From: Candidatus Kaiserbacteria bacterium RIFCSPHIGHO2_02_FULL_55_25
GTDB lineage: Bacteria; Patescibacteriota; Minisyncoccia; Phycocordibacterales; UBA2100
Assembly (NCBI GenBank): GCA_001781335.1
Contig: MFLL01000010.1
Location: 1 to 52,679 of the forward strand
Length of the DNA: 52,679 nt
Reading direction: 5' to 3'
Below are positions 3,381-52,145 of this stretch, piece by piece. Within the stretch, counting starts at the first letter, position 1. Every line of letters starts with the position of its first letter. Made by a program: the position numbers and the translations under genes. The notes beneath the pieces were generated by a model. That model made no database searches. It had not been told where the DNA came from and saw only the letters and a program-made list of their open reading frames with translations.

Positions 3381-3398
3381 AGTGTTTTCCCGCCCCGT

Positions 3399-4268
3399 GT
3401 GGGCAAAGACACGAAAACGCCTTATCTCACGGGGTATACTTGTAGTGTGCGCGTACTGCAACAAATATTCCGGTCTCCGCTGGGGGTGACTGCCGCACTT
3501 TCCGTGGCGCTCCTGCTCGGCGTCTCGGTCTCCCAGATTTCCTCACTTATGCAACAAAACCAACAGGTGCTCGCATTTGTCGCCACGCCGGCGGCACAAA
3601 CAGCTACGGCTGAAGGCGCCGACTGGCAACAGGAAATGACCCTACTCGGACTGAATACCGAAAATAATCCGGCTGCGACTTCAACCGCCGACAGTATCGC
3701 GATGATTGGCCAGATAGTCATCGCCGAAATGGTGGGACAGTACGCGGGCATGCAGGATAGGGGGTCGTATACCGCAGAGACCGTGCAAAACGCATCCGCA
3801 AACATCGCCGCGAATCTCCGCGCGAATATTTTGTACAAAACATACTCGACGACCGACTTCAAAACAGACACGGATATTTCCTACGACCGCATGCTTACGT
3901 ACCGGAGTGACTTGCGTGCGGCACTCGCGCCGCTTTTGCAAAATACCGGCTCCGAATTGGAACTGTACGGCAAATATATTGAAACGGCCGACGCCAACTA
4001 TCTCGGCCAACTCTCCGCGGCCGCCGGCAATTATCGCGCGGCGGCGGAGCAGGCCGCGGCGCTCACCATCCCGCGCGATGCGGTAAATTATCACAAAGAC
4101 ATTTTGAACGCGATGGAACAATTCTCCGCGACGCTCGACAAAATGGCGACGCACGCCACCGACCCGCTCGCCTCCGCCGCGCTCTTGCGTACGTTCAACC
4201 AAGCCGAGACAACTATGTACACTTCGTTCAACGCGCTCTCGCGCTACTACTCGCAGAAAACGCCATGA
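3399..4268 (+). CDS. hypothetical membrane-anchored protein, same architecture as the preceding gene
   Basis: GTG start in the track. TM helix (VTAALSVALLLGVSVSQI), then an Ala/Thr/Tyr-rich helical domain. The 3' end overlaps the next gene by 4 nt. The exact start is uncertain. Confidence 0.55.
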   Translation: MGKDTKTPYLTGYTCSVRVLQQIFRSPLGVTAALSVALLLGVSVSQISSLMQQNQQVLAFVATPAAQTATAEGADWQQEMTLLGLNTENNPAATSTADSIAMIGQIVIAEMVGQYAGMQDRGSYTAETVQNASANIAANLRANILYKTYSTTDFKTDTDISYDRMLTYRSDLRAALAPLLQNTGSELELYGKYIETADANYLGQLSAAAGNYRAAAEQAAALTIPRDAVNYHKDILNAMEQFSATLDKMATHATDPLASAALLRTFNQAETTMYTSFNALSRYYSQKTP

Positions 4269-5905: not shown

Positions 5906-8370
5906 CTATGATCAAGACCTCCTTCTCGGCATCAAGTCTCGTGTTCCTCTTAGTCACCTTGGCGACTCTCATACCTACGCCCGCAGATGCTCTAACTCAA
6001 ATGAGTTGCGACCCTCCGATGACCTTGCAGCGAGTGCAAGGAAGCATGTGGGTAGGATATTCGTGGACATGGCAATGTGTAGACACCAACTCCGGACAGA
6101 CTGCCGCCGCAAAGGAAAAAGAGGTGTCGACGTGCGATCCGGGCTTTCGTCAGGAGAGAGGAACGATGCAAGGGGAACTTTCAGAGGGCAATCTTTGTGT
6201 TCCAGAATCAACCCCCCAGAGTACTGACGCGAAAGCAGTTTACACGGGACCTACTAGTTGCTCTGCAACGTGGGACAAAATGACAAACCCCGGAACCTGT
6301 CTATTCCGCGCGGCAATGGCCGGGCTCGGTTCAGTGCTCATTACGCTCACCGCTTGGCTATTGAAAGTTGTTGGCCTTCTTTTTAACTACCTGTTGTGGT
6401 ACACCGTTATCGCCTTTGGCGACTCAACCAACGGCTTTTTGACTAAAGACATCCTCACGGGGATCAACACCACTTGGACCGTCTTCAGGGACATCGCAAA
6501 TATTCTCATCATCGGCCTCTTTACCTTTATCGCCATCTCTACCATTCTCGGCAATCACGAATTCGGTGCCAAGAAGATGCTTGCGAAAGCGCTTATCATT
6601 GCAGTCCTCATCAACTTCAGCCTCCTTTTCACCAAGATGATAATCGATGTTTCCAACTTCACCGCCTATCAGTTTTATGCGGCCGCCGGCGGTACTATCG
6701 GCGTAACTAAGCCTGCAGACAGCGGAGGAACACTTTCATTCAAACAGGACGGTATAGGTGGGACGTTTATCAAATTTCTTGGAGTTACAAGCATAAGCGA
6801 TACGTTTGATAAACTTAAAAGCGGCGCGGATGCACAAGACAGCGGCTGGATTACTCTTCTGCACGGGCTTTTTGGAGCAACGATGCTACTTGCTACAGCG
6901 CTTGTCTTTCTTTACGGCAGTTTTTTGCTCGTGAGCCGCGCGATACTTATTGTCTTTCTGCTCATCACGTCGTCGCTCGCATTCGCGGCGTACCTTCTGC
7001 CGAAAAGTATTCAGGGCTCATACGGATGGAGCACGTGGTGGAACTCGCTGGTGAAAACCGCAGTGTTCGCACCGCTTCTCATGATGTTTCTTTGGGCTAC
7101 CATAAATCTTGCAACGAAATTGAACCCGGGCGGCAAAGGAACATTAGGGGCACTCATGACCGACCCGACCAACGGAGGAAATCTTAGCGCACTCTTCGGC
7201 TACATCATTATTCTCGGACTTCTTTTCGCCTCATTCCAAATCTCGAGCAGTTTTTCCTCAAAAATCGCGGGCTTCAATCTGGCCGCGCTCATACCCGCGA
7301 TTGGTCTCGGAGCAGTTGCGGGAATCGGTGGATTCCTTGGCCGGCAAGCAATCGGCCGACCCGCTATGGCTATTGGCGAAAGGCTTCAGAATCGATCGGG
7401 AGCAACAAGCAATGCATTTGCCAAGCGCATGTATGATCTTGGTGCGCAGGGCTTTAAGTCGGTTTCCAAGCGGGACTTTAACGCCATGCGAACCGGCTTG
7501 GGCACTGCGGTAGCGGGCACGGCAGGAAAGAAGGTGGATGAGCTGGTGGGCAAGGCCGTCGGAGGCTTCGAAGGCTCGCAAAAGGCGTTCTTGAAGCGCA
7601 CGGCAGAGATGGCGCGTCGCACGAAACCCGACGACGAGACAAAAGAAAAGGGGCAGCAGGACGCGAGAGACAAGGTCACTAGAACAGATATTGATCAGGC
7701 TTACAAGGCCGCTATGGCAGAAAACGAACACCGCGATCGCGCTGCCGAGCATGAGGACGTTAAAGAGGCTCTCCAGCAATACAAGGAAACTAGCGAGCAG
7801 GCGATTAACGAAATGCGGAAGGGTGTTTCCGAAGCGTTTGAACGAACGCAGAGAAGCCCCGGCGACCAAGCAGCTCAAGCCGATCTTCAGCGGATGAAGC
7901 AGCGAGTGCAGACGGCAGAAGCTGAGCAAGAGCGCCAAATTACAGAACAATCGGAGCACATACGAGGTGCGCAGAAATTGGTCGCGAAAGCCGCTCGCAA
8001 AATAGAGGGCGTCGACAAAGATCTTAATGAGGTCGCCAAAGACGCCGGATACAATCGGTGGGCGTTCCAAACTGCGGGCGATAGGGCGAAAGATCTGGCA
8101 GGAGGATTTTCGGCACTTCTCTACGCAAGCGGAGTCAGCAAGAAAAGTAGAGAAAAGCTGGCGGCAAAAGCGGCGAAAGAGGCCGGGAAGCAAGAGCGTC
8201 AGCAGAATTTCAAAGAAAAGTACGGGGACGCACTTAAAGAGATGATGAAAGAGGACGAACATGCAAAAGAAACGCCGAGAGCGGCGGCACCGGCGGCTCG
8301 CGCCGAGCCGGCTCGTAGTGACCACCCTGCAGAACCGTCAGGCGGTGGAGATCACGGAGAACGTCATTAG
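5890..8370 (+). CDS. VirB6/TrbL-like polytopic membrane protein with Cys-rich ectodomain and long K/E/A/Q-rich C-terminal tail
   Basis: Signal/TM at MIKTSFSASSLVFLLVTLATLIPTPADA. Cys-rich ~130 aa, then about 7-8 hydrophobic helices (aa ~190-560 of the track ORF), then ~270 aa of a charged coiled-coil-like tail. In-frame ATGs at 5890, 5896 and 5908, the last one just after the upstream stop at 5903-5905. The track start at 5791 overlaps the upstream gene and is unlikely. Confidence 0.55.
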   Translation: MPMAVTMIKTSFSASSLVFLLVTLATLIPTPADALTQMSCDPPMTLQRVQGSMWVGYSWTWQCVDTNSGQTAAAKEKEVSTCDPGFRQERGTMQGELSEGNLCVPESTPQSTDAKAVYTGPTSCSATWDKMTNPGTCLFRAAMAGLGSVLITLTAWLLKVVGLLFNYLLWYTVIAFGDSTNGFLTKDILTGINTTWTVFRDIANILIIGLFTFIAISTILGNHEFGAKKMLAKALIIAVLINFSLLFTKMIIDVSNFTAYQFYAAAGGTIGVTKPADSGGTLSFKQDGIGGTFIKFLGVTSISDTFDKLKSGADAQDSGWITLLHGLFGATMLLATALVFLYGSFLLVSRAILIVFLLITSSLAFAAYLLPKSIQGSYGWSTWWNSLVKTAVFAPLLMMFLWATINLATKLNPGGKGTLGALMTDPTNGGNLSALFGYIIILGLLFASFQISSSFSSKIAGFNLAALIPAIGLGAVAGIGGFLGRQAIGRPAMAIGERLQNRSGATSNAFAKRMYDLGAQGFKSVSKRDFNAMRTGLGTAVAGTAGKKVDELVGKAVGGFEGSQKAFLKRTAEMARRTKPDDETKEKGQQDARDKVTRTDIDQAYKAAMAENEHRDRAAEHEDVKEALQQYKETSEQAINEMRKGVSEAFERTQRSPGDQAAQADLQRMKQRVQTAEAEQERQITEQSEHIRGAQKLVAKAARKIEGVDKDLNEVAKDAGYNRWAFQTAGDRAKDLAGGFSALLYASGVSKKSREKLAAKAAKEAGKQERQQNFKEKYGDALKEMMKEDEHAKETPRAAAPAARAEPARSDHPAEPSGGGDHGERH

Positions 8371-8386
8371 TCGGTAGATACATTAT

Positions 8387-8983
8387 ATGAGCGACGACAA
8401 AGAATTTGACGACTTGATAAAAGAGCGATTCAAAGAATTGCCCCGCGTTGTGCAGGAGGCCATTGTCTCCGCTGACGTCGAGAAACATTTGCGAGAGTTG
8501 GCAGAAACAAACAAACTACATCTCGACCAATGGACGTCGCTTGAGGACGTGGTGCAAATGACCCTGCTGGGACTTGAGGACTCCGGCGAGCTCATGCAGA
8601 ACATTCGAGATAGGGTTCACGTACCAGAGGAGACGGCACAAACTCTAGCCAAGAGCGTCTCCGAGATCGTCTTCGAGCCCATCAGACAGGAGTTGGAGCG
8701 GCAACTTGAGCACCCCGATGCGGTCGCGAAGGCGACGAGCGGGGTAGAGGACATGCGCGCGAGCATCCTTGCCGACGCGTCAGAGCATTCCGCCCCTGCT
8801 CCCGCCGCCGTAGCTACGCCTGCAATTCCACCTACACCTGCTATTGCGCCCGCCACACCGCCCGCGCCGGCACCAACAGTGAAGGTGGAGCGCGCATCGT
8901 CGGCCCCGCCATCATACGTCTCCGGCCCAAGCCACGAGCGCAAAGCGATAGAAGGCGACCCGTACAGAGAGCAGCTCGACTAG
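8387..8983 (+). CDS. hypothetical acidic protein with Pro/Ala-rich C-terminus
   Basis: 198-aa ORF in operon orientation. No TM segment. C-terminal APAPAAVATPAIPPTPAIAPATPPAPAP low-complexity tract. Confidence 0.55.
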   Translation: MSDDKEFDDLIKERFKELPRVVQEAIVSADVEKHLRELAETNKLHLDQWTSLEDVVQMTLLGLEDSGELMQNIRDRVHVPEETAQTLAKSVSEIVFEPIRQELERQLEHPDAVAKATSGVEDMRASILADASEHSAPAPAAVATPAIPPTPAIAPATPPAPAPTVKVERASSAPPSYVSGPSHERKAIEGDPYREQLD

Positions 8984-8995
8984 TCGAGTTGCTCA

Positions 8996-9442
8996 GCTTC
9001 TAGGTTCTAGCGGCTAGGTTCTAGGTATGAATCCGGAAATCGAATCACACAAAGATCTGCTGGTTTGGCAAAAAGCAGTCACGCTCTCCATGGCAGTCTA
9101 TGCGATGACAGAAAAGTTTCCCGCGAGGGAAATGTACTCGCTTTCGTCGCAAATGCGTCGTGCGGTCGTATCCATACCTTCAAACATCGCGGAAGGGAAA
9201 GCGCGTCGCACGCGAGCCGACTATGTGCATTTTCTCCACATGGCATACGGTTCAGCATCCGAACTGGAAACCCAACTATTGATAGCGGCACGGCTCGGTT
9301 TCTGTTCCGAAAAAGTCTATGAAGAAACCAATTCACTGCTCGCAGAAGTGAGTAAGATGTTGCGTGCTATCATAAATAAACTAGCGACGGCTCGTTAGCT
9401 TGCTGTGTTCTGCCTAGAAGCTAGCCGCTAGTCCCTAGCACC
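8996..9442. repeat. pair of ~30-bp imperfect inverted repeats (8996-9025 and 9413-9442) bracketing the four-helix-bundle gene
   Basis: Left arm gcttctaggttctagcggctaggttctagg. Reverse complement of the right arm ggtgctagggactagcggctagcttctagg. I count 25/30 matching positions, including the core CTAGCGGCTAG. Confidence 0.75.
9027..9398 (+). CDS. four-helix-bundle protein (23S rRNA intervening-sequence protein family)
   Basis: LLVWQKA..., FPAREMYSLSSQMRRAVVSIPSNIAEG, GSASELETQLLIA: the signature motifs of this family, at ~123 aa. Confidence 0.85.
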   Translation: MNPEIESHKDLLVWQKAVTLSMAVYAMTEKFPAREMYSLSSQMRRAVVSIPSNIAEGKARRTRADYVHFLHMAYGSASELETQLLIAARLGFCSEKVYEETNSLLAEVSKMLRAIINKLATAR

Positions 9443-9448
9443 TATACT

Positions 9449-9955
9449 ATGCAATTCCAAGTTCCTCAATTCATAGAGGTGGAAGACAAAATTTTCGGGC
9501 CACTGACCTTCAGGCAATTCGTTTTTATCGCCGGAGGCTTCGGAATGGCCTATGTGCTATGGAGAATGTTGCCCATCTACCTCGCGGCGCCACTCATCCT
9601 CGGGGTAGGAGCACTTGCGGCGGCGCTTGCATTCTTCCAGTTCAACGGGCGACCGTTTATCCTCGCGCTCGAGAACGGCTTTTACTACATAATCCGGTCA
9701 AAACTGTACCTGTGGAACAACGCCAACAAGAAGCGGGCCGCGGTGAAGACAGCCGCGACGACCGCGCAGAATGACGTATACATCCCGAAAATTTCCGACA
9801 GTAAACTGCACGAACTCGCGTGGAGCCTCGACATCAAAGAGCGCATAGCCGCCGGCACGGCAGGGGACGACGAGCGGGGCGGCGCGCTCACCGGTGTGCG
9901 CACGCCAAAAGAAATCCTTTCGCACATGGGCGGGCGGGTAGCCAACAGCCAGTAG
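9449..9955 (+). CDS. PrgI-family (VirB3-like) T4SS membrane protein
   Basis: N-terminus MQFQVPQFIEVEDKIFGPLTFRQFVFIAGGFGMAYVLW followed by a second TM helix, the typical PrgI layout. Confidence 0.75.
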   Translation: MQFQVPQFIEVEDKIFGPLTFRQFVFIAGGFGMAYVLWRMLPIYLAAPLILGVGALAAALAFFQFNGRPFILALENGFYYIIRSKLYLWNNANKKRAAVKTAATTAQNDVYIPKISDSKLHELAWSLDIKERIAAGTAGDDERGGALTGVRTPKEILSHMGGRVANSQ

Positions 9956-9960
9956 TCTTT

Positions 9961-10053
9961 AGAACGTAGTGCGTAGAAAACACAATGCAAACACAAGATA
10001 CAATTCAAGGCATCCTCGCTACGTACTACGTACTAACTACTACGAACTAATGT
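9961..10053 (+). repeat. 93-nt intergenic element, copy A (degenerate hairpin), filling the gap between PrgI-like stop and next ATG
   Basis: Aligns without indels to 10725-10817; I count 10 substitutions in 93 nt. ACGTAG/CTACGT-rich arms flank a conserved AT-rich 45-nt centre. Confidence 0.85.
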
Positions 10054-10719
10054 ATGGCGGAAACACCAATCATGACGCCGCGCGCAAGCGCCAAGTCGAC
10101 ACAAGACTTCGTGCCGATTTCCCAAGTACGCGATGGTGTTGTGCTCCTCAAAGACGGCGGACTACGGGCGGTCCTGCTCGCATCAAGCATCAACTTCGCA
10201 CTCAAAAGCGAAGACGAGCAGACCGCGTTTATCGTGCAATTCCAGAACTTTCTCAACTCTCTCGATTTTTCGTTGCAGATATTCGTGCAGTCGCGCATGC
10301 TCGACATCCGTCCGTACGTTGCGACACTCGAGGCCGCGTACAAGGAGCAACTCGACGACCTCATGCGCATCCAAATCCGTGAATACATCGAGTTCATCAA
10401 AAGCTTCACCGAAGCCGCCAACATCATGACGAAAAACTTCTTCGTTGTTGTGCCGTATTCGCCCGCGGTCATCACGAAACGCGGCGGCGCGAGCGCGCTG
10501 AACCCGTTCGGCAAAAAACAGACGGCGAGCGAGGCCGACCACTCGTTCGAAGAACAAGTGAGCCAGCTGGAGCAGCGCATTTCTATCGTCCAGCAGGGCC
10601 TCGTGCGTACCGGTGTGCGCACCGTGCAGCTCGGCACCGAGGAGGCGATAGAGTTGCTCTACAAAATGTTCAACCCCGGCGAAGAGGGCAAGCCGATGCC
10701 CGTTCAGGGCAGTCAGTAG
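10054..10719 (+). CDS. hypothetical protein resembling the N-terminal ~200 aa of Gram-positive-type VirB4 (TrsE/Orf16-like) ATPases
   Basis: STQDFVPISQVRDGVVLLKDGGLRAVLLASSINFALKSEDEQTAFIVQFQNFLNSLDFSLQIFVQS matches my recollection of the N-terminus of long VirB4 homologues. No search was run. Confidence 0.5.
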   Translation: MAETPIMTPRASAKSTQDFVPISQVRDGVVLLKDGGLRAVLLASSINFALKSEDEQTAFIVQFQNFLNSLDFSLQIFVQSRMLDIRPYVATLEAAYKEQLDDLMRIQIREYIEFIKSFTEAANIMTKNFFVVVPYSPAVITKRGGASALNPFGKKQTASEADHSFEEQVSQLEQRISIVQQGLVRTGVRTVQLGTEEAIELLYKMFNPGEEGKPMPVQGSQ

Positions 10720-10724
10720 CTGAC

Positions 10725-10817
10725 AGAACGTAGTACGTAGAAAATACAATGCAAACACAAGATACAATTCAGGGCATCCTCACTACGTTCTACGTACTAC
10801 GTTCTACGTACTAATCT
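10725..10817 (+). repeat. 93-nt intergenic element, copy B, with a perfect 18-bp inverted repeat (10725-10742 / 10788-10805) and 45-nt loop
   Basis: agaacgtagtacgtagaa ... ttctacgtactacgttct are exact reverse complements. The loop carries two TACAAT boxes. The element ends at the ATG of the VirB4 gene. Confidence 0.9.
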
Positions 10818-12737
10818 ATGAACCTTACCGACCTTCTTCCGTTCAAGAAAAAAGCCGCCGCGGGGCCGGATATTTTGCCGGTACTACCCGAAGAAATCTA
10901 CCAGACGGGGGTACTCGACCTGCAGGACGTCATCGCACCGCATGCGCTCAAGGTAAATTCTCGCGAACTCGACTTGGGCGAGAAAATCGCGCGCACTTTC
11001 TTCGTCATTTCATACCCGCGCTTTCTCACCACGGGATGGTTCGCCCCCATCATCAACATGGACAAGGTCATCGACATTTCCATCTTCGTCCATCCGATGG
11101 ACACCAACGAAATGCTCCGTAAGTTCCAGAAAAAAGTCGCCGAGGTGCAGAGCCAAATCTCGACGCGCGAGCAGAAGGGGATGGTCCGTGACCCGATGCT
11201 CGATACCGCATACTCCGACCTCGAGCAGTTGCGCGACAGCCTCCAGCAGGCGCAGGAACGCATCTTCGACGTCGGACTCTACCTCACCATCTACGGCAAC
11301 ACGCGCGAAGAGATAGACAAGGTGGAGAGCGACGTGCGCTCCATTCTCGAATCGCGCCTCGTGTACATCCGCCCCGCACTCTTCCAGCAGGAACAGGGTT
11401 TCCGCTCCGTCCTCCCGCTGTGCACCGACGAGCTCGACGTGCACACAAAACTCAATTCCGCGCCGCTCTCATCCATCTTCCCGTTCATCTCGTTCGACCT
11501 CACCTCCGACCGCGGCATTCTCTACGGCATCAACCGTCACAATTCATCTCTTATTCTCTTCGACCGCTTCTCGCTCGAAAACTACAACTCCGTGACGTTT
11601 GCAAAATCCGGCGCCGGCAAAAGCTACACAACAAAACTTGAGATATTGCGCTCTCTCATGTTCGACACCGAGGTCATTGTCATCGACCCTGAGCGCGAAT
11701 ACGAATATCTCGCGGAGACCGTCGGCGGGCGCTACTTCAATATCTCCCTCTCCTCGGAGCACCACATTAATCCTTTTGACCTGCCCATCCCGCGCGAAGA
11801 TGAAAATCCGAGCGACGTGCTTCGCAACAACATCATCACGCTCGTCGGGCTCTTCCGCATCATGCTCGGCGGGCTCACGCCGGAGGAAGACGCCGTCATT
11901 GACAAGGCAATCACCGAAACCTACGCGCTCAAAGACATCACCTCGGATACGAATTTCGCACAGGTTGAGCCGCCGCTCCTCTCCGACTTCGAGCTCGTTC
12001 TATCCGGCATGGAGGGGAGCGAGTCGCTCGTGCAGCGTCTGTCCAAGTACACGAAGGGTACGTGGTCGGGATTCATGAACCGCCCGACGAACGTCGACAT
12101 GAATAAAAAGCTCGTCGTCTTCTCGGTGCGCGACATGGAAGACGACCTCAAACCGGTCGCGATGTACATAATCACGCACCACATCTGGAATCAGGTGCGC
12201 AAAGAGCTCCGCAAGCGCCTACTCGTCATCGACGAAGCCTGGTGGATGATGCGCTCCGAAGACACCGCGTCGTTCCTTTTCTCCATCGCAAAACGCGGCC
12301 GCAAATACTACCTTGGTATCTCGACCATCACACAGGACGTGTCCGACTTCCTGAACTCCCCGTACGGCATTCCTATGATAACCAACTCGTCCATTCAGCT
12401 CCTGCTACGCCAATCACCGACCTCCGTCGACCTCGTACAAAGCACGTTCAAGCTCTCCGACGAAGAGAAGTACCTTCTGCTCGAGAGCGACGTGGGGGAG
12501 GGTATCTTCTTTGCCGGTCTAAAACACGTTGCGCTCAAAGTCATCGCCTCATATACGGAAGATCAGATCATTACCTCGGACCCGTCGCAAATTCTCGCAA
12601 TCAAAAAGGCGAAACAGGAGCTCGACGCGTCGAATGACGCGCCCCGGCCCGTTGCCATGCCCGCCGCGCACGCACCGGGCACCGACACCGCACCAGCGCC
12701 GCAGGCTCCGTCCAGTAACGCCCTACGGGAGGTATGA
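10818..12737 (+). CDS. virB4: VirB4/TrsE-family T4SS ATPase
   Basis: Walker A FAKSGAGKSYT, Walker B RLLVIDEAWWMM, and ISTITQD... motifs. YPRFLTTGWFAPII...IDISIFVHP region typical of VirB4. Confidence 0.85.
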   Translation: MNLTDLLPFKKKAAAGPDILPVLPEEIYQTGVLDLQDVIAPHALKVNSRELDLGEKIARTFFVISYPRFLTTGWFAPIINMDKVIDISIFVHPMDTNEMLRKFQKKVAEVQSQISTREQKGMVRDPMLDTAYSDLEQLRDSLQQAQERIFDVGLYLTIYGNTREEIDKVESDVRSILESRLVYIRPALFQQEQGFRSVLPLCTDELDVHTKLNSAPLSSIFPFISFDLTSDRGILYGINRHNSSLILFDRFSLENYNSVTFAKSGAGKSYTTKLEILRSLMFDTEVIVIDPEREYEYLAETVGGRYFNISLSSEHHINPFDLPIPREDENPSDVLRNNIITLVGLFRIMLGGLTPEEDAVIDKAITETYALKDITSDTNFAQVEPPLLSDFELVLSGMEGSESLVQRLSKYTKGTWSGFMNRPTNVDMNKKLVVFSVRDMEDDLKPVAMYIITHHIWNQVRKELRKRLLVIDEAWWMMRSEDTASFLFSIAKRGRKYYLGISTITQDVSDFLNSPYGIPMITNSSIQLLLRQSPTSVDLVQSTFKLSDEEKYLLLESDVGEGIFFAGLKHVALKVIASYTEDQIITSDPSQILAIKKAKQELDASNDAPRPVAMPAAHAPGTDTAPAPQAPSSNALREV

Positions 12738-17611: not shown

Positions 17612-17720
17612 AAAAAGAGTCAGAATCGTTTTCCGCCGTGTTCGCAGCGCGACGGCGCGAGATTCAGGGACCTTTCAGCAGAAAGGTACCCGACGGCGGA
17701 AAGCGATTCTGACTCTTTTT
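17612..17720. repeat. 28-bp inverted repeat (17612-17639 / 17693-17720, 1 mismatch) with nested inner hairpin, in the rpmH<>dnaA intergenic region
   Basis: aaaaagagtcagaatcgttttccgccgt versus the reverse complement of acggcggaaagcgattctgactcttttt. The inner segment ggacctttcagcagaaaggtacc is itself near-palindromic. Confidence 0.8.
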
Positions 17721-24843: not shown

Positions 24844-25010
24844 GCTCAAAGTATATCCCAAAGAAAAAGGCGGCGGATGTGTTACGGCCCGTCGGATACT
24901 CGGAGTCGGAACACCCCATCGGCTACAGCTCGAAGTCTTTCGGCACGTATAAGCCATGTTCCGTCGCCTATTGGTAACACTGCCTTCTTGCCCGCCAACC
25001 CAAAATCCCT

Positions 25011-25034
25011 ATACTTAGGTCTATGACTAAGTAT
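25011..25034. promoter_or_regulatory. operator-like palindrome ATACTTAGGTC-TAT-GACTAAGTAT overlapping the ArsR-family gene start codon
   Basis: Shares the half-site AATACTTAGGT with the perfect palindrome at 25425-25456. Confidence 0.5.
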
Positions 25035-25436
25035 TGGAACCCTCGTCGGATTAAACGCATCAAAGACCGGAAACTACGCGCGGCAAAACGCGCCTCAGAA
25101 AATGCCGCGATTCTTAGAGAACGTGCTCGTTCTTATACACCGGGTGATGCGCGGAAGAACGCCGGACTCATGCTAGACGCACTCGGTTTGCCGTTGAGAC
25201 GCCGGATGCTTGCACGACTAAGGCGAGAGGGCACCATGTCGGTTTCCAAGTTGGTCGAACCTTTCCGGATTACGCTTCCATCAGCACTCGAACATGTCCG
25301 CGTTCTCGAACGATCCGGTATCATTACGACGCATAAACACGGCCGTGTCAGGCTTTGCGTCTACCGGCCGGAAGCCCTAAAAGAACTCGCTCGCGAGCTC
25401 ACTTCTCGGGGATTAGAATATAATCCCAATACTTAG
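25023..25436 (+). CDS. ArsR/SmtB-family winged-helix transcriptional regulator
   Basis: LDALGLPLRRRMLARLRREGTMSVSKLVEPFRITLPSALEHVRVLERSGIITTHKHGRVRLC, an ArsR HTH pattern. Confidence 0.8.
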   Translation: MTKYWNPRRIKRIKDRKLRAAKRASENAAILRERARSYTPGDARKNAGLMLDALGLPLRRRMLARLRREGTMSVSKLVEPFRITLPSALEHVRVLERSGIITTHKHGRVRLCVYRPEALKELARELTSRGLEYNPNT

Positions 25437-25456
25437 GTTTGTACCTAAGTATTGGG
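25425..25456. promoter_or_regulatory. perfect 14+14 palindrome CCCAATACTTAGGT-TTGT-ACCTAAGTATTGGG (operator and/or terminator)
   Basis: Read directly from the sequence. Overlaps the ArsR stop codon, ~100 nt upstream of the VIT1-family gene. Followed by tandem TTTTAGGGAA x2 (25472-25492). Confidence 0.6.
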
Positions 25457-25553
25457 ATAGGAACAACTCGGTTTTAGGGAAATTTTAGGGAAGGGCGCGT
25501 CCCTCAAAAAAGGGCGCGCGTCGGGTACCATCGGGAGGTGGTACGATAGCGGT

Positions 25554-27463: not shown

Positions 27464-27505
27464 TTGAACAGTTTATAGTTTTTAGTTGATAGTGGATAGG
27501 GGATG

Positions 27506-52008: not shown

Positions 52009-52013
52009 AAGGT

Positions 52014-52117
52014 AAGTATCAGGTATCAAGTGCCAAGTAGCAAACAAGTATCAATCCAAAGTATCAAAGACCGTACCACTGTTTACCTGATACTTGATAC
52101 CTGCGACTTGATACTTC
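52014..52117. promoter_or_regulatory. array of GTATCA / TGATAC 8-mer-type repeats in the ruvA<>rpsT divergent intergenic region
   Basis: GTATCA at 52016, 52023, 52048 and 52061. TGATAC at 52088, 52095 and 52109. Most occur within the longer AAGTATCA(A) / (T)TGATACTT context. Confidence 0.6.
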
Positions 52118-52145
52118 CGCCCATAGAGTGTAGTATCGGCGGCAC

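Follow-up and report, generated by a model that had tools for sequence, protein, structure and literature searches.

An operon of type IV secretion-like genes in Candidatus Kaiserbacteria bacterium RIFCSPHIGHO2_02_FULL_55_25 contains, between two host genes, a small gene of a family named after the intervening sequences (IVSs) of 23S rRNA, and the locus raises the question of whether this gene is a component of the operon or the cargo of an element inserted into it. The DNA analyzed here (the window) is the whole 52,679-nt stretch of contig MFLL01000010.1. An earlier note on it, made without database searches, had read the gene as part of an IVS-type cassette bounded by the arms of a stem and embedded in the operon. 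That reading is supported by empty sites in orthologous operons, by arms that co-vary, by related cassettes at other junctions and by a close likeness to the rRNA IVSs. Coordinates are window positions on the plus strand unless stated otherwise, and L-numbers denote fetched loci of relatives. The features at the junction are:

8387 to 8983, plus strand: upstream host gene of 198 aa, assigned to no Pfam family; relatives with and without the cassette keep the C-terminal ...DPYREQLD.
8969 to 8994, plus strand: 13-bp hairpin, a 92% complementary inverted repeat with the TAG stop of the upstream gene in its loop.
8995 to 9025, plus strand: left arm, four CTAGNNN heptamers of the TTCTAGG type, with TAG in all three frames, ending 1 nt before the cargo ATG.
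9027 to 9398, plus strand: cargo gene, encoding a 123-aa four-helix-bundle protein with an Avd-like fold (PF05635 23S_rRNA_IVP, TIGR02436).
9413 to 9443, plus strand: right arm, four CTAGNNN heptamers, the complement of the left arm.
9449 to 9955, plus strand: downstream host gene, PrgI family PF12666 by profile match.

An inverted-repeat search delimits the arms as two 31-nt sequences, 84% complementary and separated by a 387-nt spacer, giving a cassette of 449 nt (8995-9443) between the 198-aa gene and the PrgI-like gene. The earlier note had described arms of ~30 bp, complementary at 25 of 30 positions and sharing the core CTAGCGGCTAG, of which the left ends 1 nt before the cargo ATG and the right 6 nt before the PrgI-like ATG; all of this is correct, the measured distances being 1 nt (ATG at 9027) and 5-6 nt (ATG at 9449). 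A feature missing from it is the CTAGNNN heptamer build of the arms. Tandem Repeats Finder reports a period of 7 with 4.1 copies at 8998-9026, which places the tandem heptamers of the 5′ arm next to the cargo start codon, and a degenerate final unit, CTATACT (9442-9448), follows the right arm and touches the PrgI-like ATG.

Part of the arm complementarity is automatic because CTAG is palindromic and recurs at a 7-nt spacing; even without selection, the complementarity between any two CTAG-N3 arrays is 57% or more. That the arms are nevertheless not a product of chance is argued by their spacers, their rarity and their confinement. The spacers between the CTAGs pair too (6 of 9 match; p ~0.01, binomial). 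CTAG is ~6-fold depleted across the window, with 30 copies where ~199 are expected from base composition (56% G+C), and yet the arms hold eight of the 30. Within the window the core CTAGCGGCTAG is confined to the two arms (4 matches vs 0.5 expected). The minimum-energy fold of 8985-9455 (−164.8 kcal/mol; z −4.76, with 0 of 100 shuffles equally good) has the arms paired and the open reading frame (ORF) looped out whole, as the earlier note had envisaged.

Nowhere else in the window do the CTAG arms recur, and an rRNA gene is lacking; the element is flanked by protein genes and so does not lie inside a 23S or 16S rRNA helix. A search for further arm copies, the 23S gene included, which the earlier note had proposed for the genome, was thus negative within the window but did bring to light related heptamer-armed elements, described below. 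Neither a promoter-like nor a plus-strand terminator-like site was found in 6943-11000, although promoters of the host, a member of the candidate phyla radiation (CPR), may differ from those scored.

The names of homologous proteins put the host among the Patescibacteria. With the VirB4-like ATPase as anchor, we located the four operon genes in each of 80 orthologous operons (72-93% identity). The first junction, between the 198-aa gene and the PrgI-like gene, is occupied in ~14 and empty in ~30 of these operons; the others are cut off or have different inserts. At empty sites 3-100 nt, free of any heptamer array, separate the 198-aa gene from the PrgI-like gene, and such sites occur in close relatives (L123, L096, L095, L105, L108 and L109; close-relative VirB4 88-92% identical). 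The cassette is therefore an insertion relative to orthologous operons, and the comparison by which the earlier note had hoped to reveal an empty site does so some thirty times over. The compact ground state of the operon has a gap of ~20-60 nt between the 198-aa and PrgI genes and gaps of 0-12 nt each between PrgI and the TraC-like gene and between the TraC-like and VirB4-like genes. Decayed copies are also found at the first junction: a 72-aa remnant in L118 and loss of one arm in L114 and L124.

Cassettes occupy other junctions in other lineages, namely PrgI|TraC in L126 and TraC|VirB4 in L153, L161, L138, L142 and L101. Two four-helix-bundle genes that differ strongly from each other coexist in several operons and must have arrived independently. 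On the VirB4 tree occupancy is scattered: with C for a cassette and m for one of the short ORF-less elements (minis) described below, the window reads Cmm and its sisters read C.. (L094), C.m (L093) and ... (L123). No target-site duplication is present at the junctions, and ten identical contigs gave no strain-level heptamer slippage.

The sequence of the arms differs between lineages while their complementarity is kept. The heptamer unit at this junction is CTAGNNN in the window, L011 and L094, GTAGCNN in L093, TCGAGNN in L103, TTTCAGC in L102 and CCAGCTN in L101 and L112. At the first junction the mean arm score is 38.6 for own partners vs 20.7 for cross pairs, and in 6 of 8 cassettes no other arm outscores the own partner. 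Heptamer copy number is unequal between the arms of one cassette in L094 and L110. The arms have stayed paired while neutral sites were randomised. Conservation of complementary arms in relatives that carry the gene was one point on which the earlier note had staked its reading, and at this junction they are present, complementary and co-varying.

The 13-bp hairpin at 8969-8994 adds a further peculiarity of the left border. Its 5′ arm consists of the last codons of the host gene and its 3′ arm, directly before the cassette, is their complement. Such a stop-spanning hairpin accompanies six of 15 occupied loci (z −3.3 to −10.4) and none of 22 empty sites, and in the six the coding sequence differs each time and the complement matches each time. 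As a general mark of these cassettes it was rejected, being found at only four of 63 diverse loci, two of them of this lineage.

The cargo protein belongs to the IVS-type four-helix-bundle family to which the earlier note had assigned the 123-aa ORF: it matches PF05635 with E 7.6e-39 (132.6 bits, cut-off 33.8) and TIGR02436 ('four helix bundle protein') with E 2.9e-37 (127.2 bits, cut-off 24). Its nearest solved structure is that of pentameric XCC0516 of Xanthomonas campestris (2GSC, E 2.8e-25). It falls below the cut-offs of both Avd models (NF033474, 31.8 bits vs 80; PF22296, 29.5 bits vs 40), no reverse transcriptase is encoded by the adjoining genes (198-aa gene, PrgI, TraC-like, VirB4-like), and no long direct repeat of the template/variable type lies within 8900-9550. 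At this junction the cargo is under purifying selection: non-synonymous differences are low (pN 0.18-0.32) and synonymous sites are saturated (pS 0.71-0.88), and therefore the protein is maintained by selection.

Does the architecture extend beyond this operon? A sample of 80 genomic loci with relatives of the cargo protein, from phyla and classes including Patescibacteria, Bacteroidota, Acidobacteriota, Gammaproteobacteria, Clostridia, Fibrobacterota and Verrucomicrobiota, includes none inside an rRNA gene. At ~55-60 of the 80, the 90 nt preceding the ORF and the 90 nt following it share a significant inverted repeat. Self-match at lag 7 reaches at least 75% of a 28-nt window in 41% and 38% of flanks, vs no more than 1% at lags 4-6 and 9-11 and 7% at lag 8, and in 39 of 81 cassettes the best partner of the left arm is its own right arm (Mann-Whitney p 1e-32). 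Both neighbours are co-oriented with the cargo at 60 loci and opposed at four, and the median gaps to them are 57 and 41 nt, that is, just the arms. The 130 neighbouring proteins represent 201 Pfam families, with functions such as chemotaxis, sugar-nucleotide synthesis, succinate dehydrogenase, tRNA synthetases and ABC transporters; the cargo gene is thus tied to no particular functional partner. The more similar the proteins, the more similar the arms (Spearman 0.18, p 7e-13), from which we conclude that gene and arms are inherited together.

The arms also have a polarity. The left arm contains more G than C on the sense strand in 42 of 46 cassettes, and stops in at least two frames face outward in 38 of 46 left arms (sense) and 34 of 46 right arms (antisense), inward in 24 and 27 of 46, respectively. 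The idea that the arms exist to place stops in all six frames was rejected, since this is only a tendency and CCAGCTN arms have no stops. Also rejected as a family-wide feature was a terminal CTAWTYY motif before the downstream ATG (11 of 82 vs 6.4 expected).

A further cassette lies in an essential operon: in X. campestris a close XCC0516 homologue (L173, 2430-2872) forms a cassette between accB and accC with 30-nt arms of the GGGAATC type (2430-2459 and 2843-2872), 87% complementary and 383 nt apart. GGGAATC arms around an IVP gene tie this published heptamer repeat to the gene family. A Ruminococcus cassette (L047) has arms of the AGTGGTT type at 2927-2983 and 3383-3439, to which many rumen metatranscriptome contigs with different flanks correspond, so that community transcribes arrays of this type and has them in multiple copies; over the L047 cassette itself the contigs end at the multi-copy arms. 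Relatives in Thiohalocapsa (L050) and Fibrobacter (L030) are flanked by heptamers of this type as well.

Two ORF-less stem-loops of similar build fill the next two junctions of the operon in the window:

9959 to 10036, plus strand: mini A, an ORF-less heptamer-armed stem-loop with a 17-bp stem, filling the PrgI|TraC junction (98-nt gap, 9956-10053).
10725 to 10805, plus strand: mini B, an ORF-less heptamer-armed stem-loop with a perfect 18-bp stem, filling the TraC|VirB4 junction (98-nt gap, 10720-10817).

Their stems consist of ACGTAG-type heptamers (fold z −3.8 for mini A and −5.3 for mini B), and the two inserts, 760 nt apart, are identical at 85 of 99 positions with an exact common 26-nt loop core. 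The loops retain an ATG with a short ORF. Mini A contains a 21-codon mini-ORF (MQTQDTIQGIL...) that begins at 9985 and whose TAA lies 3 nt before the TraC-like ATG; mini B has the same mini-ORF, with its TAA again 3 nt before the next start codon, and L093 likewise has a mini-ORF ending 3 nt before the start of the next gene. The PrgI|TraC junction measures 1-3 nt in L011 and L094, and the TraC|VirB4 junction 1-4 nt in L011, L094 and L123. Other relatives (L102, L103 and L110) have pairs of short elements of their own, often with the heptamer type of that genome's cassette; the three elements of the window have three different arm types. By analogy with the short ORF-less rRNA intervening sequences, the minis are probably ORF-less derivatives.

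Other repeats of the window deserve a brief description. A further heptamer-armed hairpin at 52011-52118 is built of AAGTATC-type units in its left arm and of GATACTT-type units in its right, the arms being 26 nt long, 81% complementary and 44 nt apart (z −3.55). Tandem heptamers at 27470-27504, AGTTTAT then TAGTGGA, have no obvious inverted partner and may be a solitary arm. An inverted repeat at 17612-17720 (AAAAAGAGTCAGAATCGTTTTCCGCCGT...) has 28-nt arms, 96% complementary, around a 53-nt spacer. The stretch 25005-25458 (33-nt inverted repeat, 388-nt spacer) was considered as a second cassette and rejected: it has no heptamers, and a 33-nt palindromic operator-like site (CCAATACTTAGGT-N-ACCTAAGTATTGG) occurs in it twice, once on either side of a 137-aa ORF (25023-25436) that, read by eye, resembles an ArsR-type winged-helix regulator.

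The operon junctions are a hotspot with varied cargo. PF13366 PDDEXK_3 ('GxxExxY') genes form cassettes of the same geometry in L154 (2683-3187) and L141 (1134-1478), the former with 43-nt heptamer arms, 86% complementary, of which the left overlaps the start of the ORF. GIY-YIG genes are found nested in a broken four-helix-bundle cassette (L110, 2133-2722) and standing alone (L139, 2230-2747 and 3393-3991). At the same junction L100 has a Y1_Tnp gene, resembling those of transposases associated with repetitive extragenic palindromic sequences (REP; transposases, RAYT), together with REP-like hairpins (1983-2809), and at an operon junction of L162 (1767-2665) lie two minus-strand ORFs of 136 and 146 aa that by eye may be a nucleotidyltransferase/HEPN pair. 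Arms also supply the ends of host genes: a solitary CTAG arm at PrgI|TraC in L105 provides the last codons and stop of the PrgI gene, and an array at TraC|VirB4 in L112 provides the stop of the TraC-like gene.

Taken as a whole, these findings are probably best explained, and we hold this with moderate confidence, by a promoterless selfish cassette of IVS type that lives in operon gaps and whose RNA stem is cut by RNase III. Such a cassette would have inserted exactly into the stop-to-start gap of a conserved Patescibacteria type IV secretion-like operon, as an element of gain and loss and not as a subunit of the operon. It would be transcribed within the polycistronic RNA, where the ~30-bp stem would form and, by analogy with the 23S IVS of Coxiella, be cut by RNase III. 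The cut would release the cargo RNA from the cistrons on either side, which would limit polar damage; the outward stops of the arms would end any upstream reading frame whatever the phase of insertion; and the hairpin over the upstream stop would cap the new 3′ end of the upstream fragment. This hairpin could instead be a scar of insertion.

Several observations weigh against this explanation. CTAG is self-complementary, so 16 of the ~28 arm pairs follow from array structure alone. Arm mismatches are G·U in 40 cases and A·C in 38, which is no RNA-strand signature, and in view of this balance the pairing could have its role in the DNA, or gene conversion between the arms could maintain it. The cassette lacks a gene for any known recombinase, transposase or reverse transcriptase, for which reason 'mobile' describes comparative patterns only. 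Saturated synonymous sites mean that much of the spread at this junction may be old vertical descent with loss. A search of sequencing runs for the window yielded assembled DNA metagenome contigs only and no RNA run; these contigs represent related strains and one weak CTAG-armed short form, with no excision. Finally, a regular-expression scan of the six-frame translation of the window, and of the window only, found no RNase III signature motif.

The alternative that survives best, though we regard it as unlikely, sets the action of the arms at the level of DNA. On this view an HUH/Y1 (RAYT-type) enzyme or other recombinase acting in trans would use the inverted heptamer arrays, in single-stranded DNA, as substrates, either for recombination or as hairpins. 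The arrays would serve insertion and excision, and any RNA stem would be a by-product. The even mismatch spectrum just described fits such an element, and the presence within a single operon of two ORF-less copies, 86% identical and 760 nt from each other, recalls the spread of REP hairpins (REPINs) or of miniature transposable elements with inverted repeats (MITEs); the Y1_Tnp gene with REP-like hairpins in L100 and the differing heptamer copy number within L094 and L110 point the same way. A symmetric DNA site, however, would not be expected to show the G-over-C polarity of the arms (42 of 46) or the 60:4 preference for sense orientation. Target-site duplications and an adjoining recombinase are both lacking, and the identically built rRNA IVS is processed as RNA (PMC4990558).

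Rather improbable is a domesticated regulatory module, in which the host would keep both stem and protein to set the relative expression of the operon genes. The stem would be an insulator, a processing site or a translational relay, and the protein would bind its own arms. Purifying selection on the protein would then be accounted for, as would retention of the cassette at the first junction in several lineages with saturated synonymous sites and the correlation of arm type with protein similarity; the mini-ORFs that stop 3 nt before the next start, kept in L093, look like restored translational coupling. Yet close relatives work with an empty site, the neighbour genes across phyla are unrelated, and decayed copies exist (the L118 remnant, the arm losses of L114 and L124, the GIY-YIG gene nested in L110). 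With three arm types in the window, moreover, one protein cannot read all by sequence. A chance or compositional artefact, that is, unrelated CTAG-rich low-complexity stretches around an ordinary small gene, has a negligible probability despite the complementarity inherent in CTAG-N3 arrays and is refuted by CTAG depletion, by the recurrence of arms with non-palindromic heptamers at the junction in relatives, by the family-wide periodicity and partner statistics and by the own-partner scores.

Returning to the selfish operon-gap cassette, we tentatively propose a broader reading, possible rather than probable, in which the rRNA IVS is the best-known landing place of a larger class of micro-cassettes at operon junctions and rRNA helix tips across phyla, and in which their arms explain many intergenic heptamer arrays and spread through an RNA intermediate is possible. 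The cargo of this class would be an Avd-like four-helix-bundle gene, a GxxExxY PD-(D/E)XK gene or none, and the arrays so accounted for would include the Xanthomonas GGGAATC pairs, the Geobacter paired sites and perhaps the cyanobacterial short tandemly repeated repetitive sequences (STRR), a further class of intergenic tandem heptamer arrays. Three features would be compatible with an RNA intermediate: the cassettes keep strictly to the sense orientation, their rRNA form is excised at the level of RNA, and the cargo is akin to Avd, a cofactor of reverse transcriptase. Where the last codons of the host gene recur in inverted form at the left border, this copy could be a snap-back scar of such spread.

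The IVP/S23p family is annotated in thousands of genomes, scattered over rRNA, cas operons and housekeeping operons. If the gene is the cargo of a stem-bounded junction cassette, a question about a gene family turns into a testable question about an element, and the accB-XCC0516-accC locus of X. campestris combines an essential operon, in a host that can be cultured, with a protein of solved structure. At least some of the intergenic heptamer arrays of Xanthomonas, Geobacter, Beggiatoaceae and cyanobacteria would gain a concrete origin, which may explain them. For the annotation of Patescibacteria, inserts of ~450 nt and ~100 nt in a secretion operon become readable as element turnover and not as operon components. 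Heptamer-armed cassettes across phyla, including one in an essential Xanthomonas operon, would be of real interest if confirmed and unpublished.

How does the element compare with known systems? Avd of the diversity-generating retroelements is a homologous, pentamer-forming four-helix bundle that matches the cargo weakly through PF22296 and NF033474 (PMC10053308); unlike Avd, the cargo scores below both curated cut-offs and has no adjacent reverse transcriptase or template/variable repeat. REPIN/RAYT elements and MITEs resemble the minis in being non-autonomous intergenic hairpins of ~100 nt in multiple genomic copies (two in this 52-kb window), whereas the minis have heptamer-array arms in place of REP palindromes, lack target-site duplications and keep one orientation to the operon. 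Integron cassettes are also small promoterless ORFs on a host transcript with imperfect foldable inverted repeats. Unlike them, the cassettes described here have no integrase or attI, have repeats on both sides of the ORF instead of one attC and are scattered across operons instead of stacked.

Intergenic heptamer arrays of the GGGAATC/TAACTGA class come closer to the arms, with at least three tandem 7-nt units in operon gaps and often in convergent, stem-forming pairs. Xanthomonas genomes hold 70-75 convergent GGGAATC pairs each, described as putative G-quadruplex repeats (PMC4692102); TAACTGA arrays occur in Beggiatoaceae, cyanobacteria and Bacteroidetes (PMC4679880), and paired tandem hepta- or octamer sites in Geobacter (PMC2700814). 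In these three papers the arrays figure as G-quadruplex, regulatory or protein-binding repeats, and no four-helix-bundle or PD-(D/E)XK cargo is mentioned; our link from such an array to an IVP gene is seen at one Xanthomonas locus. IVP genes themselves have been noted inside cas operons (PMC3936711) and in 16S and 23S insertions of CPR bacteria (PMC11270868). The literature consulted, which leaves out most subscription journals so that a prior description is possible, contains no description of heptamer-armed IVP cassettes outside rRNA.

The closest likeness is to the 23S rRNA IVSs with an S23p/IVP ORF, as in Coxiella and Leptospira, whose cargo belongs to the same family, PF05635. The IVS of Coxiella burnetii, 428 nt long, has a 28-bp terminal stem, and its S23p start codon is immediately preceded by GACAGAT heptamers in three to four tandem copies; it is at the first of these repeats that RNase III makes the 5′ cut when it excises the IVS (PMC4990558). 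The window cassette is alike in size (449 nt), in a terminal stem of 28-31 bp enclosing the ORF and in the tandem heptamers of its 5′ arm right before the start codon; neither element has its own promoter, and both settings have short ORF-less forms. The claim of the earlier note that the cassette shares the geometry of an rRNA IVS thus holds in detail, from size and stem to heptamers and S23p cargo (PMC4990558). The two differ in that the host transcript in the window is a protein-coding operon and the site a stop-to-start gap instead of a helix tip; RNase III excision, shown for Coxiella, would apply to the window cassette by extension; and the Coxiella ORF is decaying and probably untranslated, whereas the window cargo is under purifying selection. 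Without the 'inside rRNA' feature that defines the classical family, the most fitting label for the element is that of an intervening-sequence-type cassette set in an mRNA.

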